This document shows positions 42,981-47,939 of a DNA stretch of 50,936 nucleotides, piece after piece. The position numbers were made by a program, and so were the translations under genes. A model generated the notes under the pieces. It had not been told where the DNA came from and did not search any database. It worked only from the letters and a program-made list of their open reading frames with translations. The stretch spans positions 1-50,936 of the forward strand of contig CAYTOG010000002.1 of assembly GCA_964439765.1 (NCBI GenBank), written 5' to 3'. The stretch's first letter is position 1. Each line of letters begins with the position of its first letter. This stretch comes from an uncultured Methanosarcinales archaeon (lineage in GTDB: Archaea > Nanobdellota > Nanobdellia > Woesearchaeales > GW2011-AR9).

Positions 42981-43006
42981 GGAAGATTGGTTCATAGTGG
43001 TTTATG

Positions 43007-43116
43007 CGCCGGTAGTTTAATGGCTAGAATCCCGGCCTTCCATATGAAGGCTGGCAGCTTTACTGCCTTGCTTTGAAGCAAGCCGGTGATCCGGGTTCAA
43101 ATCCCGGCCGGCGCAC
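43007..43116 (+). tRNA. tRNA-Gly (anticodon UCC) with a 38-nt intron after position 37
   Basis: Hand-folded. Acceptor stem GCGCCGG/CCGGCGC plus discriminator A; D arm GTTT/GAAT; anticodon stem CCGGC/GCCGG; loop C-T-TCC-A; T arm CCGGG-TTCAAAT-CCCGG. The intron spans 43044-43081. A 4-bp helix CTTC (43038-41)/GAAG (43076-79) is flanked by 3-nt bulges carrying both splice sites (BHB-like). Confidence 0.8.
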
Positions 43117-43119
43117 TCC
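43106..43119 (+). repeat. att direct repeat, left copy (inside the tRNA 3' end)
   Basis: CGGCCGGCGCACTC, identical to 47888-47901. Confidence 0.8.
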
Positions 43120-43126
43120 CTTTCTA

Positions 43127-43160
43127 TTCCGATGCGCTACCACATGTTTAACAGAATTAT
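43127..43160. repeat. terminal inverted repeat, left
   Basis: ATTCCGATGCGCTACCACATGTTTAACAGAATTA. Its reverse complement matches 47840-47873 at 27 of 34 positions ungapped, with perfect 13-bp and 9-bp arms. Confidence 0.7.
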
Positions 43161-43196
43161 ATATACTTTTAGCCGTCTGCTATGAGGTAACGGAAA

Positions 43197-44465
43197 ATGG
43201 CAGAAGACGATATTTACAAAAGCAAAGCAAAATATGAAAGATTGATTTCTATTATGGATTCTTGGGTTCTAACGCCTGATTGTTACAAAGGCAGAGGGTA
43301 CAGAAAGTATTACATCAAGTACAAAGATAATCTCAAATATTTCTATAAGTTGCTTCCAATTTGGGAAATGAAGGATTTGAGCTACATTAGAAGGATTCGA
43401 TTGCTCAATGTAATGCTAATGATTTGCTTTGTACCTGAAAAAGACTTGAAGGATTGTAATCGTGATGATATTAACGAAATCATGGGATTTATGCATACTT
43501 GTCATAAAACAATCAAAAGTAAATCAGATTTTATTAAAAATCTCAAATGTCTATGGAGAGTATTGTTTCCAGATATTGATCAATTCGGACGAGCTGATGA
43601 AACATTGATACCTTATGTTGTAAGACATCTGTCTGGAAAAATTGATAAGAGCAAACAAAAAAGGCGTAATGAGAAATATACCATAGAAGAATTTCAAAAA
43701 ATAGTTCAATTCTTTGATAAGGATCCAAAGGTTCAAGCTTATATCACTGCCATACATGAGACATATGTAAGACCACAGGAATTATTGTACTTGAAAATTC
43801 AGGATTTGGAGTTCTATGATAATTATGGGATTGCTAATGTCTCTTCTCATGGAAAAGAAGGATGTAAACCAATTCAATTTGAAAATCTTTCATATCCTTA
43901 CTTGTGTAAATGGTATCATCAACACCCTTTGAAAAATGATCCTGAGGCATATTTATTCTTAGGAGAGAGCAATAATAATAGGTACAAGCAATTAGGAATC
44001 TCAGCTATGAACAAGAAAATCTCTCATGCCTGTAAGGTGCTTGGGATCAATAAGCGCATTACAAGTTATACTTTCAAGAGGATGGGAATTACAATTGATC
44101 GGATGAATGGTGTTTTGGATAAAATTATTATTTCAAAAGCAGGTTGGACTTCAGGGAAACAGTTGTCTACTTACGATCTTGGTTCTCGTAAAGAAGGTTT
44201 GCGGATGTCTCTGATTTCAAAAGGTTTGGTTACAGCAGAATCATTTGATGAGAAAAGATTTCAACCAAAGCAAAAGCATTGCAGTTTCTGTCAATATGTG
44301 AACGCCTACGCAGATAATCTTTGTGGTGGATGTCATCGGCCACTCAATCGTGAACATATGCAAGAGATGGAGCAGAGTCATCAGAAGCTAATGAGTAATG
44401 AGTTGTTGTCTCGGATCGATAAGTTGGAGACAGCGTTGACTGAGAAGCTGGAGGAAAGCGTGTAA
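43197..44465 (+). CDS. tyrosine recombinase / integrase with C-terminal zinc ribbon
   Basis: YVRPQELLYLKIQDL (box I Arg), GKEGCKP hairpin Lys, TFKRMG, AGW and STYDL (candidate nucleophile Tyr), then C..C...C..C. Lies 80 nt from the tRNA. Confidence 0.75.
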   Translation: MAEDDIYKSKAKYERLISIMDSWVLTPDCYKGRGYRKYYIKYKDNLKYFYKLLPIWEMKDLSYIRRIRLLNVMLMICFVPEKDLKDCNRDDINEIMGFMHTCHKTIKSKSDFIKNLKCLWRVLFPDIDQFGRADETLIPYVVRHLSGKIDKSKQKRRNEKYTIEEFQKIVQFFDKDPKVQAYITAIHETYVRPQELLYLKIQDLEFYDNYGIANVSSHGKEGCKPIQFENLSYPYLCKWYHQHPLKNDPEAYLFLGESNNNRYKQLGISAMNKKISHACKVLGINKRITSYTFKRMGITIDRMNGVLDKIIISKAGWTSGKQLSTYDLGSRKEGLRMSLISKGLVTAESFDEKRFQPKQKHCSFCQYVNAYADNLCGGCHRPLNREHMQEMEQSHQKLMSNELLSRIDKLETALTEKLEESV

Positions 44466-44533
44466 AAAATTAAAAGTAAATAAATTAAAAAAAAAATGTT
44501 GGTAAATTTCCTGCTACCAACAGATTGTTAAAA

Positions 44534-44680
44534 TTATTTTGCCAACCAAGCTAATTGTAAAATTACCCCTAAAGATAGAAGGAGTCCTGATCCAGCGATT
44601 CCTCCAAGAAAGCCCACACTTCCAAGTGCAAGTAAAATCGTTGGTGGATTTTTTGCGATAATTTTCACAGTTGTCTTCAT
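44534..44680 (-). CDS. small hydrophobic peptide (48 aa), below the ORF-track cutoff
   Basis: Hand-translated as MKTTVKIIAKNPPTILLALGSVGFLGGIAGSGLLLSLGVILQLAWLAK. Its ATG is 1 nt after the stop of the upstream 216-aa ORF. Confidence 0.35.
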   Translation of the reverse strand: MKTTVKIIAKNPPTILLALGSVGFLGGIAGSGLLLSLGVILQLAWLAK

Positions 44681-44681
44681 T

Positions 44682-45332
44682 TTATTTGACCTTAAATCTA
44701 CTAGCTTTACAATTCAAATTAATTGCTTCAATATCTTCATGGGTTTTATTTTTCCAGAAATTTTCAATTACTTGGTTTCTTTCATTCAGATAATTGTGTT
44801 GTTTATCATTCTTTTTCATCTTGATTAATTTAGCAAAAACTTTATTTGCAAGAATGAGTCTAAGTTTTTGTAAATCTTCATCAAGATAACTATCTCGTTT
44901 TTCTTTTCCATAAATAAAATTTACCGCCTCTCCTTTATGATTTGTTAATCTGAAAAATGGTACAACTCTTCCGTTACCTATTTTCTGTACAAATCCATAT
45001 GGGATTAGCCATACTTTGAACGTTCTGCCTATTTTGTTTCTCTTTAAGCCAAGTTCATTTGCAACTTTAGTTATAGTTATGTCTTTCTCTTGTTTTGACA
45101 TTTCCAATACTTTCTTGTAAACTTCTTTGATGAAATTCACATCTGCTCTAGGGTGCTCTTTCATGATTACATCTACTTTGTTCTCTATCATAGTATTCTC
45201 CACAAGAAGTAGTGCCACAAAAAGAAAATCTTTTAAAGATGCTCTCTTTTTCAATGTTTGTGACGTTGCTGTAAATACTAATTTAATTAGTGTTTGCAGT
45301 GACACTTTTCTTGATTTAGTTTTAAAGATCAT
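44682..45332 (-). CDS. hypothetical protein with probable (w)HTH DNA-binding segment
   Basis: The ITITKVANELGLKRNKIGRTF segment looks like helix-turn-helix. The true start is uncertain, with internal Met residues at codons 48 and 57. Confidence 0.4.
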   Translation of the reverse strand: MIFKTKSRKVSLQTLIKLVFTATSQTLKKRASLKDFLFVALLLVENTMIENKVDVIMKEHPRADVNFIKEVYKKVLEMSKQEKDITITKVANELGLKRNKIGRTFKVWLIPYGFVQKIGNGRVVPFFRLTNHKGEAVNFIYGKEKRDSYLDEDLQKLRLILANKVFAKLIKMKKNDKQHNYLNERNQVIENFWKNKTHEDIEAINLNCKASRFKVK

Positions 45333-45533
45333 TGAGTTAATTTCATTTATAAGCTTTATTGTCGTTTCGACCTGAATAAGTGGTAAATTTTGGAGACATC
45401 GTCTAAATCAAAGAAATTTTCTGTTTTTAGACAGTCACTATCCAAAAGATACGAATGTAGAAATAACTGTAAAAACCACCAAAAGTACCTCATCCAACAA
45501 AGAAAGATAAGATAAAAGCCTATATAAAATTTG

Positions 45534-45668
45534 TTAACTATAATAAGGTAGTAAGAAACCTCTCCTCACCAACTCCGCAATACTTTTCCCTTGTCTCTTT
45601 GCTTCATAGCGTAGTCTTTGATCTTCTTCTGGCGTTACCCTAATTCCAATGAATCGTTTACGTGACAT
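45534..45668 (-). CDS. ribbon-helix-helix (CopG/MetJ-like) protein, 44 aa, below the ORF-track cutoff
   Basis: Hand-translated as MSRKRFIGIRVTPEEDQRLRYEAKRQGKSIAELVRRGFLLPYYS. Shows a beta-strand (IGIRV), helix, G-x-S/T turn, helix pattern. Confidence 0.55.
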   Translation of the reverse strand: MSRKRFIGIRVTPEEDQRLRYEAKRQGKSIAELVRRGFLLPYYS

Positions 45669-45670
45669 TA

Positions 45671-45775
45671 TCAAACCTCTTGAATCCTCTGTTCCGCTGC
45701 ATCAAGAATTGCCTTAATTTCTCTGTGCATCCAAGAGCGAATTTCTGTTATCTGTTTGTGTTTTGTCCAGTTCAT
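45671..45775 (-). CDS. 34-aa mini-ORF upstream-coupled to the RHH gene
   Basis: MNWTKHKQITEIRSWMHREIKAILDAAEQRIQEV. Its TGA is 2 nt before the RHH ATG, and an AT-rich TATA-like ATAAATATT lies about 30 nt upstream. Coding status is unproven. Confidence 0.25.
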   Translation of the reverse strand: MNWTKHKQITEIRSWMHREIKAILDAAEQRIQEV

Positions 45776-45851
45776 GATAGAATATGTATTACAAATCTAA
45801 TATTTATATCTTGTAAACCCCACAGGCTACAATGCAAAAACAGCCATTTCT

Positions 45852-46252
45852 AGACATGTGTTTTTTCACTATTTTTGAGATTCTTCTCGTCGTAGAAGAA
45901 ACAGGAAAAAAGCCAAATTAGTCACCAGCTATAACAGGTGTTTGCAGAGTGGTGCCTAATTTGAGATTTAGAAGAAAAGAGAAGAATTTATCGTATTTTT
46001 GGACACCTGTTTTTTCGTGAAAAATTTTGGTCTTGTTGTCGTAGAAAGACTATGAATCAAGTGAATTAGTCACCCCTAATAAGAGATGTTGGAAGTGGTG
46101 GTGACTAAAAAGAGATCAGCAAAAAATCTCGTTTTTGGCCACAAGGATTTTCGCTAAAATCAAGAATTTTCTCGTCGTAAAGAACATAGAAAAAGCTCAA
46201 AAAAGTCACTGACTATAAGGCATGTTTGATAGGGTGGTGACAAGTTTGAGAT
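45852..46252. repeat. three degenerate tandem repeats (periods 149 and 136 bp), each with an internal inverted repeat
   Basis: Conserved blocks in each unit are GTTTTTTC / TCGTCGTAGAAGAA-like / TTAGTCACC ... GGTGACTAA / TTTGAGAT. Stem positions: unit 1 45918-26 and 45951-59 (one mismatch), unit 2 46066-74 and 46100-08 (perfect 9 bp), unit 3 about 46204-09 and 46236-41 (degenerate). Confidence 0.75.
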
Positions 46253-46276
46253 AAAAAAATGAATTAACTCAAGAAT

Positions 46277-47707
46277 TTATTTCATTTTGAAAATATAAAC
46301 TTCCTTCCTCTCTGGTCCTACCTGTGCAAAAAGGTTTCCATGTGCAGCATATACTGCATCACAAATTACATCCATTGAAGAATCCTGGGGATAACCTATG
46401 TGGAGTAAATCAAATCTACTTGGAAGTGGCCCATTAATTTGATCACGTCTTTTTGGCAATGTTGTTTCATTATAATGAGGTCTAAAAATTGCTTGCATAG
46501 GAGTTATACCAAACCCATCAAATATTGCTTGTACAACAAGGAAATTATCACCAAAAGCAAATTTACTAGAAGGATGAAGTGGCCCTAACCTATCTGTGTG
46601 TGTTTTCAAATCACCAAGATACTGTTGAGTTTGACCAGAATCATCTATCCCTGCAAGAATGTGGCCTCTTGGAAAATAGACATTTCCATCAAATGCTCCA
46701 AGCCGCATAGTCATATCATCCGCAGGACTCATTGCAAAAGAAGTTGGAAATGCCCCTTCATATTTTACTTCGTCTCCTGAATTAATTGAAATTACTTGAT
46801 GAACATGTGGTCTGTCCCTTCCGCCTTTTGAAACACTAAGAAATACCTGCCCATTAACAGCTAATGTATCGTGAATCCTAACTCCCCTTTCCAAAACTTT
46901 TTTTGTATCATACCTTCTTATAACTCCGCTTGCAGCATCTGGTCTTTGAAATGAATAAACTGTTGAATCTCCATCAGTTAAGACAACCATATTATTTGCT
47001 ACAGTAATTGAATGTTTTTGTGTAAGTTCTTCTATAAATCTGTGGAAACCTTTCCCAAATGCTTCTGGAAATTCAATTTCCCATCCAGCTATTCTTGAGC
47101 CTTCTCTGTACACAGAGAGATGACTATCCTTATCTAAAATGTACAGGTCTCCACTTTCATCAAAGGTTAATGCAATCGGTTCAGAATCAAGTTCTAGTGT
47201 CATTTCTAAACTAGCAGGATTAACTCTTCCTTGGTTTAATTGGTCTGCTCTTTGTCTATTAATCTCAAAACGTTCTTTCCCAGTATGTTGTAAATTTCTA
47301 ACATCTGACCAAGCATAACTAGCACTTTCTTTTTTATTCTTCAATTCCAAACAATATGCTACTGTTGCATGCGCTGTTTCTGGACCAAGAAGTTTTAATT
47401 CAATACCCCTTGTACCTCGAATAAATTGTCTGGCAGTCACTTCTCTTTGGACTAACTGGGCAGCAACTTTCTGTCCAACTTGATACTCATTAGTTGCCCA
47501 TCCACCATATACTGCAAGAAGAGGAGCTATTCTGATCAGATCTTCTGTTCCCATTCTTTCAATAACAGAATCATCCCATTCAAACCAACCATGTCCAAAT
47601 TTATGAGATCTGTGTCGTTCTGGTGCTAACTGAAAATGATCTACAAAGAATTTCCACTCATCTGGGTGATATGCTTGTTCACCTTTATGTGTTGGACATC
47701 TAACCAT
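46277..47707 (-). CDS. orphan 476-aa protein (element cargo)
   Basis: Long uninterrupted ORF that is visibly less Lys/Asn/Ile-rich and more Arg/His/Gly-rich than its neighbours. The C-terminal two-thirds looks beta-rich and repetitive. No family recognised. Confidence 0.6.
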   Translation of the reverse strand: MVRCPTHKGEQAYHPDEWKFFVDHFQLAPERHRSHKFGHGWFEWDDSVIERMGTEDLIRIAPLLAVYGGWATNEYQVGQKVAAQLVQREVTARQFIRGTRGIELKLLGPETAHATVAYCLELKNKKESASYAWSDVRNLQHTGKERFEINRQRADQLNQGRVNPASLEMTLELDSEPIALTFDESGDLYILDKDSHLSVYREGSRIAGWEIEFPEAFGKGFHRFIEELTQKHSITVANNMVVLTDGDSTVYSFQRPDAASGVIRRYDTKKVLERGVRIHDTLAVNGQVFLSVSKGGRDRPHVHQVISINSGDEVKYEGAFPTSFAMSPADDMTMRLGAFDGNVYFPRGHILAGIDDSGQTQQYLGDLKTHTDRLGPLHPSSKFAFGDNFLVVQAIFDGFGITPMQAIFRPHYNETTLPKRRDQINGPLPSRFDLLHIGYPQDSSMDVICDAVYAAHGNLFAQVGPERKEVYIFKMK

Positions 47708-47839
47708 ATGCCCTCAGGGTTTGGTTATTTTAAAAAGATATATGTTCTATTTTGAAATAATCTGTTTAATACCACAAATTATTTAATGTTAAACACTTTA
47801 CTTTTAACTAATAAACAAGACGATGGCTTTGGTTGCACA

Positions 47840-47873
47840 TAATTCTGTGTTACACATGTAAGCGCATCGGAAT
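47840..47873. repeat. terminal inverted repeat, right
   Basis: TAATTCTGTGTTACACATGTAAGCGCATCGGAAT, the partner of 43127-43160. Confidence 0.7.
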
Positions 47874-47887
47874 TCGGGGCGTCTGCA

Positions 47888-47901
47888 CGGCCGGCGCACT
47901 C
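47888..47901 (+). repeat. att direct repeat, right copy
   Basis: CGGCCGGCGCACTC, identical to tRNA positions 43106-43119. There is no T arm or the rest of a tRNA beside it. Confidence 0.8.
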
Positions 47902-47939
47902 TTTTTATTCTAAAGATTATATACAAAGAAAGTGACAAA

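Follow-up and report, generated by a model that had tools for sequence, protein, structure and literature searches.

What are three diverged, non-coding tandem repeats doing inside a small mobile element of an ultra-small archaeon? The question is raised by positions 45847-46267 of the 50,936-nucleotide stretch of contig CAYTOG010000002.1 analysed here (the window), where units of about 140 bp form an array within a 4.8-kb element (43105-47906) that has inserted into a tRNA gene, the host being a DPANN archaeon of Woesearchaeota type. To our knowledge, DPANN mobile elements are known almost solely by their gene content, and their cis-acting sites, namely origins, transfer origins and control regions, are essentially uncharted. 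The array is a concrete handle on this cis-biology and bears on how small elements persist or move between ultra-small archaea, with nothing mechanistically surprising as yet. What our work yields is a conserved non-coding module tied to one integrase family, the bounds of the element that carries it, and a set of relatives bearing genes of a type IV secretion system (T4SS); should the module be merely a regulatory or terminator region, its interest would be local.

Three diverged units in a non-coding gap

Using a combination of repeat search, MAFFT alignment and a covariance model (R1) derived solely from the window's three units, we delimit unit 1 at 45847..45995 (149 bp, 140.8 bits to R1), unit 2 at 45996..46131 (136 bp) and unit 3 at 46132..46267 (136 bp), all on the plus strand and arranged head-to-tail. 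Repeat search recovers four collinear block families with start-to-start spacings of 148/149 and 136 bp, spanning 45847-46252, and the MAFFT alignment contains 63 invariant columns at pairwise identities of 59%, 62% and 59%. Smith-Waterman scores set against 1000 dinucleotide shuffles give z = 13.9 for units 1 and 2, 17.2 for units 1 and 3 and 4.1 for units 2 and 3, the first two beating every shuffle and the third falling slightly under the best one. These results bear out the initial annotation, which had described three diverged tandem units with periods of 149 and 136 bp and had named their shared blocks. Tandem Repeats Finder did not detect the array, because the units are too diverged for it.

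The identity between units is clumped in short blocks (G(T)6, GTCGTA, AGTCAC, CTATAA, TGTT, GTGGTGAC and GAGAT), with five runs of at least five invariant columns (P ~0.0015 by permutation). Individual blocks vary between copies: the G(T)6C block reads GGATTTTC in unit 3, and in unit 2 the TCGTCGTA(G/A)A and TTTGAGAT blocks read TTGTCGTAGA and AAAGAGAT, respectively. As read from the sequence and the alignment, the conserved blocks are spaced 30-38 bp, a distance at which they would line up approximately along one side of the DNA helix. GTCGTA lies on the plus strand at 45889..45894, 46038-46043 and 46174-46179 in units 1 to 3; a pattern scan of the window with this block returned four matches, three of them in the array, against 0.97 expected. 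Each GTCGTA is flanked by a short pyrimidine/purine inverted repeat whose register differs from unit to unit (TTCTTCT/AGAAGAA, GTCTT/AAGAC and TTCT/AGAA).

Every unit carries a larger inverted repeat built on GTCAC and GTGAC. Its arms in unit 1 are CAAATTAGTCACCA (45914-45927) and TGGTGCCTAATTTG (45950-45963), with 13 of 14 positions paired across a 22-nt spacer that contains CTATAA; in unit 2 they are TTAGTCACC (46066-46074) and GGTGACTAA (46099-46107), a perfect 9 bp around a 24-nt spacer with CTAATAA. The arms of unit 3 (46196-46209 and 46237-46250) are 79% complementary, retaining the core GTCAC (46205-46209) and GTGAC (46237-46241) together with an outer CTCAAA/TTTGAG, the middle three pairs being broken. 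A repeat that is perfect over 9 bp in unit 2, has one mismatch in unit 1 and is eroded in unit 3 is what had been reported earlier. The accompanying claim that the loop differs between units holds in part only, in that ATAA, TGTT.G and GTGGTG are common to all three and the central loop is thus partly kept.

The gap that houses the array measures about 500 bp (45776-46276), larger than the 420 bp first given. The longest open reading frame (ORF) confined to the array encodes 34 aa and an ORF scan found none of at least 35 aa between the units, in agreement with the earlier statement that no frame reaches 60 aa. Counted by codon phase, substitutions number 13/14/11, 5/5/4 and 8/7/7, without any 3-nt periodicity, and neither period, 149 or 136 bp, is a multiple of three; neither an open frame nor a codon phase was seen that would mark the units as a decayed coding sequence. 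A coding repeat, a decayed gene and micro-ORFs are ruled out by these ORF limits and by the missing codon phase, and the small frames that start at GTGGTG differ between units. ARAGORN and Rfam find no tRNA or tRNA-like gene in the array.

Some further features lie in or around the units. The start of a fourth unit, about 18 nt long (46271-46288), overlaps the stop codon of the neighbouring 476-aa gene, as does the tail of unit 3. A solitary further instance of the unit-start motif, with GTCACT after it (TTTTTAGACAGTCACT), lies on the plus strand at 45424..45439, about 90 bp upstream of a 216-aa gene; the pattern TTTYTRGMCA has four matches in the 50.9 kb, these being the three unit starts and this copy. 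The AT-rich 60-mers at 46243-46302 and 45759-45818, one on either side of the array, rank among the five with the lowest duplex stability in the element; promoters and gene ends of this 33%-GC genome show the same property. A/T-tract phasing in the array gives weak, uncontrolled peaks at lags of ~9-12, 23-25 and 34-35, to which we give no weight. Internal direct repeats also occur: within 45874-45977, unit 1 holds two copies of TTTGAGATT 86 nt apart and two of TAGAAGAAA 76 nt apart, and the surroundings of unit 3 (46159-46278) hold two copies of TCAAGAATTT 109 nt apart, amounting to eight shared 8-mers against 1.7 in shuffles.

A homologue beside a related integrase

The initial annotation had proposed a search for the unit beside homologous integrases, and we fetched 116 loci around relatives of the element's integrase. 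Model R1 matched L072:11246-11357 with 30.6 bits (E ~0.03 in 1.07 Mb), which was also the top nhmmer match. This single copy, in another Woesearchaeota genome, takes up where an integrase of 51% identity ends, its first position falling at the integrase's stop codon. The two are oriented to each other as their window counterparts are, and the copy holds G(T)6, TCGT, GAAAAAG, GTCAC, CTATAA and GGTGGTGAC in the window's order and spacing. The 8 bp of its inverted repeat, TTTGTCAC/GTGACAAA, all pair, and they differ from the window's by one A-T to T-A swap. A lack of homologous repeats in related elements, which the initial annotation counted among its refuting outcomes, is thus not what was found, one homologue being present.

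The gene content around the L072 copy differs from that around the window array. The locus reads NosD-like, Fic, integrase, unit and PQQ beta-propeller, recurs unchanged in at least 10 assemblies (L120-L129), and has a short tRNA-end-like palindrome ahead of the integrase; 3' of the unit follow a very AT-rich spacer of ~230 bp and the convergent PQQ/BamB-like beta-propeller gene. No homologue is found there of the window element's ribbon-helix-helix (RHH) protein, of p34, or of its 216-aa or 476-aa protein, leaving the integrase as the sole element protein with a homologue at the locus. We therefore regard the unit as a conserved, integrase-linked non-coding module, triplicated in the window, that travels with the integrase backbone and not with the adjacent RHH and helix-turn-helix (HTH) genes. 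As a side observation, the L072 contig, binned as Woesearchaeota, also carries a 193-aa ORF with sigma-70 region 2 and region 4 domains (L072:2872-3453), which is odd for an archaeon and could reflect horizontal transfer or a binning problem.

Beyond this locus the unit was not recovered. A four-sequence covariance model (R2) found no further copy, no other relative of the unit occurs among related loci totalling ~1.3 Mb, scans of IMG/VR and GTDB genomes with exact patterns returned none, and neither did blastn of the array against plasmids and phages. Two looser scans gave candidates that we rejected: a palindrome-only scan returned one unrelated GC-rich match, and a relaxed pattern returned six IMG/VR matches, which we regard as chance because all fall within one family of 242-245-aa ORFs at 14-16 bits. 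The array belongs to none of the families tested here.

A proposed protein-bound site and its alternatives

We lean tentatively towards a reading, the likeliest of those considered, in which a cis-acting DNA module bound by protein has been copied in tandem, the copies having since diverged, and in which this module forms part of the backbone of Woesearchaeota-type tRNA-integrating elements. The module would act as double-stranded DNA bound by proteins, not as RNA. Each unit would present GC-containing blocks (GG(A/C)CAC, GTCGTA, AGTCAC and GGTGAC) between AT-rich spacers and T/A tracts, with two inverted GTCAC half-sites bracketing the conserved CTATAA; a protein of the element or the host may assemble on these sites, and the array would then serve as an origin-type or control site needed in cis. 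The conserved blocks, at 5-8 nt, fit sequence-specific binding sites.

As to the role of such a module, an origin of transfer (oriT) used with a helper conjugative element is, by analogy, a possible choice if on the unlikely side. The array lies directly upstream of an operon encoding a NikA/TraJ/MobA-like RHH protein; in the bacterial plasmids R64 and RP4, oriT occupies the corresponding position beside the RHH operon; and in relatives bearing a T4SS pilin or VirB4, the RHH operon adjoins a divergent transfer-gene promoter region. The ORF list and Pfam show no transfer genes among the element's proteins, and a site that is needed in cis but served in trans would suit such an element. A replication origin seems quite improbable, and a promoter or operator platform has a similarly small chance. 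The copy of the unit-start motif with GTCACT upstream of the 216-aa gene and the AT-rich flanks of the array may count towards an origin or control role.

Several observations weigh against the protein-bound module and its proposed roles. At 22-26 nt, the arms are further apart than a relaxase hairpin or a dimer operator would lead one to expect, and units of ~140 bp are far above iteron size. Pfam, PHROG and NCBIfam recognise no relaxase, HUH family or replication initiator among the element proteins, the 476-aa protein is a predicted beta-propeller and the 216-aa protein is without relatives. An inverted repeat with one compensatory swap fits a hairpin equally. The L072 match is one independent sequence with a roughly calibrated E-value, from a locus that resembles a fixed chromosomal remnant, where the copy may have been retained by linkage alone; and in the T4SS-bearing relatives neither nhmmer nor either of two covariance models detects the unit.

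The hairpin leads to the alternative that the units encode, or form part of, a structured small RNA, either as paralogous small RNAs or as one repetitive transcript with a GTCAC...GTGAC stem-loop. The stem is predicted in all units on both strands, the L072 copy keeps its 8-bp stem through the A-T to T-A swap and folds better than shuffles on the plus strand (z = -3.1), as does unit 1 on the minus strand (z = -2.7), and a quasi-symmetric TATA box at ~45806-45813 could also fire toward the array. Against these points, Rfam yields nothing for the array at gathering score and only chance-level matches at E <= 10; the RNAalifold covariation term is positive, that is unfavourable, on both strands; and compensatory changes account for 0 of 14 pairs in the three-unit comparison and for 1 of 12 when L072 is added as a fourth sequence, no better than in shuffled or slid controls, this sample being too small to make the negative firm. 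Seven of the 14 stem pairs are broken in one unit and the outer stem varies without compensation, the GTCAC/GTGAC cores being preserved as sequence. Five of six single-unit folds lie within 2 sd of shuffles, T5-T7 runs, of the kind that terminates transcription in archaea, are found within the units on either strand, and the units contain no TTTATATA-type box such as marks the promoters of the element and its family, nor any convincing internal promoter. Because of the missing Rfam family, the lack of compensation above controls, the broken stem pairs, the internal T runs and the missing promoter box, we favour a DNA-level, protein-bound site over an RNA, and consider the small-RNA explanation rather unlikely; the initial annotation's paralogous small RNAs with variable loops are weakened further by the partly conserved loop.

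The other alternatives keep the array at the DNA level and tie it to its neighbours or to no function. That its units are operators for autoregulation by the RHH protein, by the 216-aa protein or by the two together, as first proposed for the adjacent RHH/HTH proteins, would suit an array adjoining the p34-RHH operon, a unit-start motif with GTCACT that recurs upstream of the 216-aa gene, and the habit of RHH proteins such as omega, ParR and CopG of binding repeat arrays. Yet the L072 homologue has no RHH, p34 or 216-aa gene beside it, the array is set back by 70-490 bp from the p34 start, on its upstream side and clear of its TATA box, and no GTCAC..GTGAC sites are seen in relatives whose RHH proteins are 45-64% identical. 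The promoter itself is occupied by a different inverted repeat, TTGTA-N12-TACAA (45811..45832), which lies by the TATA box of the p34-RHH operon outside the array and is likely that operon's own operator: it resembles TTGTACGCC..GGCGTACAA and CTTGTACGTCA..TGACGTACAAG near the relatives' RHH genes, and the array motifs differ from it. An operator array is thus improbable. A triplicated terminator, or 3'-end region of the upstream cargo gene, which would shield the p34-RHH operon from read-through, has position and a pattern of T runs in its favour: the window and L072 units both lie downstream of a minus-strand beta-propeller gene in the same relative orientation, a minus-strand stem-loop is followed by T5-T6 within 0-8 nt in units 1 and 3 and in L072, and the different array at L080, described below, also lies between convergent genes. 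Archaeal termination, however, needs T runs only, and a T7 run already stands within ~20 nt downstream of the stop codon of the 476-aa gene, ahead of the first stem-loop. Unit 2 lacks the T5-T6 run, a pattern scan found no terminator-like site, the two cargo proteins are not homologous, and the conservation of GTCGTA, CTATAA and GG(A/C)CAC is left unexplained; we give this explanation a slender chance. A functionless, decaying tandem duplication of intergenic DNA would agree with copies just 59-62% identical, with unit-specific internal repeats (TTTGAGATT in unit 1, TCAAGAATTT in unit 3) that suggest slippage-prone DNA, and with the lack of detected relatives of the unit in most related elements. 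It is very improbable in the face of mismatches that are unevenly spread and of the same blocks being retained in L072 despite 49% integrase divergence.

Set beside known systems, the protein-bound module that we prefer has partial likenesses in several directions. Like the R64 oriT-nikA and RP4 oriT-traJ regions, the array is a non-coding, inverted-repeat-rich region directly upstream of a NikA-like RHH gene; the window element lacks transfer genes, as do relaxase-less 'oriT-only' mobilizable elements, and its relatives carry TrbC/VirB2-like pilin and VirB4/TraC-like genes. In contrast to R64 and RP4, the element has no relaxase or recognisable nic sequence, the arms stand 22-26 nt apart and make no tight hairpin, there are three ~140-bp copies, and the unit is absent from T4SS-bearing relatives and present in L072 without RHH. 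Like the iteron origins of pSC101, R6K, P1 and F, the array consists of direct tandem repeats, lies in the principal non-coding stretch of a small mobile replicon, has a related motif upstream of a possible DNA-binding-protein gene and is flanked by AT-rich DNA. Iterons, however, are near-identical copies of 17-22 bp, whereas the units measure 136-149 bp and are ~60% identical with conserved blocks of 5-8 nt, no Rep-like protein was found in the window element, and no sequence resembling the archaeal origin-recognition box (ORB) is apparent; an origin, among the options put forward at the outset, would therefore be of a non-classical kind (~140 bp against ~20 bp, with no recognisable initiator).

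Integron attC arrays likewise combine units of 60-150 bp, imperfect inverted repeats, a less conserved centre and linkage to a tyrosine recombinase. They differ in their RYYYAAC/GTTRRRY arms, set against TTAGTCACC/GGTGACTAA here, and the present units are homologous over their full length and hold no cassettes, with the element's real att site elsewhere (43105 and 47888). Arrays of ToxI, the RNA of type III toxin-antitoxin systems, and of other small RNAs are also head-to-tail non-coding repeats on mobile elements; unlike ToxI, with its 36-nt period, the array repeats every ~140 nt, and it comes without a toxin gene, promoter or covariation evidence, or an Rfam match. We rejected two further candidates. 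The array as arm-type sites of attP is at odds with the nearest att core, which is 1.6 kb away. A rolling-circle origin finds no HUH protein in the element, the small hairpin changes register from unit to unit, and the 'PHVHQ' of the 476-aa protein, itself a beta-propeller, is not conserved in its family; the minus-strand TACGAC in the loop of the small hairpin resembles the pMV158 nick site.

The integrated element, its relatives and a second array

The element that carries the array is defined by its attachment repeat and the arms just inside it. Its integration target is an intron-containing tRNA of 110 nt on the plus strand (43006..43115; Rfam RF00005, 56.6 bits), which ARAGORN missed. The last 14 nt of this tRNA (CGGCCGGCGCACTC) recur at 47888, giving a 14-nt direct repeat as the bounds, with the attL core at 43105..43123 and the attR core at 47888..47906, both on the plus strand. 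A perfect 13-nt inverted repeat has one arm just inside each copy, ATTCCGATGCGCT (43126-43138) following attL and AGCGCATCGGAAT (47861-47873) preceding attR; in a circular form these arms would flank the core at 35-nt spacing. No extra att copy that would indicate a composite element was found inside the array.

Between these bounds the order is integrase (plus strand), 48-aa peptide and 216-aa ORFan (minus), RHH and p34 (minus), array, and 476-aa gene (minus). The tyrosine integrase (43197..44465, 422 aa, Pfam PF00589) has a conserved C-terminal CxxC..CxxC, and members of its family are annotated in genomes of Woesearchaeota and Nanoarchaeota. The gene for the 48-aa membrane peptide (44534-44680) comes after that for the 216-aa protein (44682..45332), in which an HTH is suspected by eye only; the latter has no match in Pfam, PHROG, NCBIfam or PDB and no relatives in a search of 5.8 billion protein sequences. 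The 46-aa RHH protein (45534..45674) is NikA-like (Pfam PF21983; 29.2 bits, cut-off 27), with weak NCBIfam matches to MobA, TraJ and MbpA. Its partner p34 (45674..45775, 34 aa), the first gene of the operon downstream of the array, has a counterpart of 59% identity in L003 (tblastn).

The minus-strand 476-aa gene on the other side of the array (46277..47707) has no Pfam match and belongs to a rare, unannotated family with ~30 remote relatives at 21-32% identity (one short match 39%). An indexed protein search with the 476-aa and 216-aa proteins matched each to itself only. AlphaFold, given an alignment of the relatives, models a helical N-terminal domain followed by a beta-propeller at pLDDT 84; from the single sequence it reached pLDDT 37, which is unusable. 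Because of the propeller fold and because both relatives looked up lie among housekeeping genes, we take the protein to be cargo, not a replicase or relaxase.

The p34-RHH pair (45534-45775 in the window) is kept beside related integrases in many loci, including L003, L075, L017, L073, L069 and L006/L007. In several relatives it is divergent from an operon that opens with a TrbC/VirB2-like pilin gene, and one close relative also has a VirB4/TraC-like ATPase. These pilin and VirB4/TraC-like genes indicate that the integrase family includes conjugative-type integrative elements in Woesearchaeota-like archaea, of which the window element is a small version without transfer genes. The RHH genes of these relatives have no comparable tandem array and no GTCAC..GTGAC repeat beside them, and in two relatives a TTGTA(C)-type inverted repeat lies by the p34-RHH TATA box (L073:7521-7543 and L009:1758-1782). 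The loci with the closest p34-RHH relative (L003-L005, integrase P0007) are uninformative on the array, their contigs ending in or just past p34-RHH; the L003 contig stops 78 nt upstream of p34 (L003:10545-10623), an assembly break where the window has its array. Tandem repeats beside other integrases of the family (L085, L071, L086) proved to be tRNA pairs or att remnants.

One relative holds a different non-coding array, which is a stranger object than the window array. Directly 3' of a 48%-identical integrase on a contig of a Woesearchaeota metagenome-assembled genome (CAZAKS010000030.1), five units of ~102 bp occupy L080:4257-4770. Each has its own 10-12-nt word (AGAGGTCACAA, AGACTATACAA, AACCTCACAAA, AAGGGGACAA and AACCGGAGAAAA), duplicated exactly 63-65 nt apart, so that the words match within units and differ between them; between the two copies lie a near-copy of the word and a TATA-like box (for example CTTTATATTAG). 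The array has 22 shared 8-mers against 1.6 in shuffles. It is a long shot that this array and the window unit together stand for a hitherto undescribed kind of non-coding module that accompanies integrases in the mobile elements of DPANN archaea. If they did, the unit-specific matched words would not fit an ordinary origin or operator; they would suggest a recognition device that is programmed by an RNA or DNA template and acts together with the tyrosine recombinase. The internal repeats of window units 1 and 3 are faintly reminiscent of the L080 pattern.

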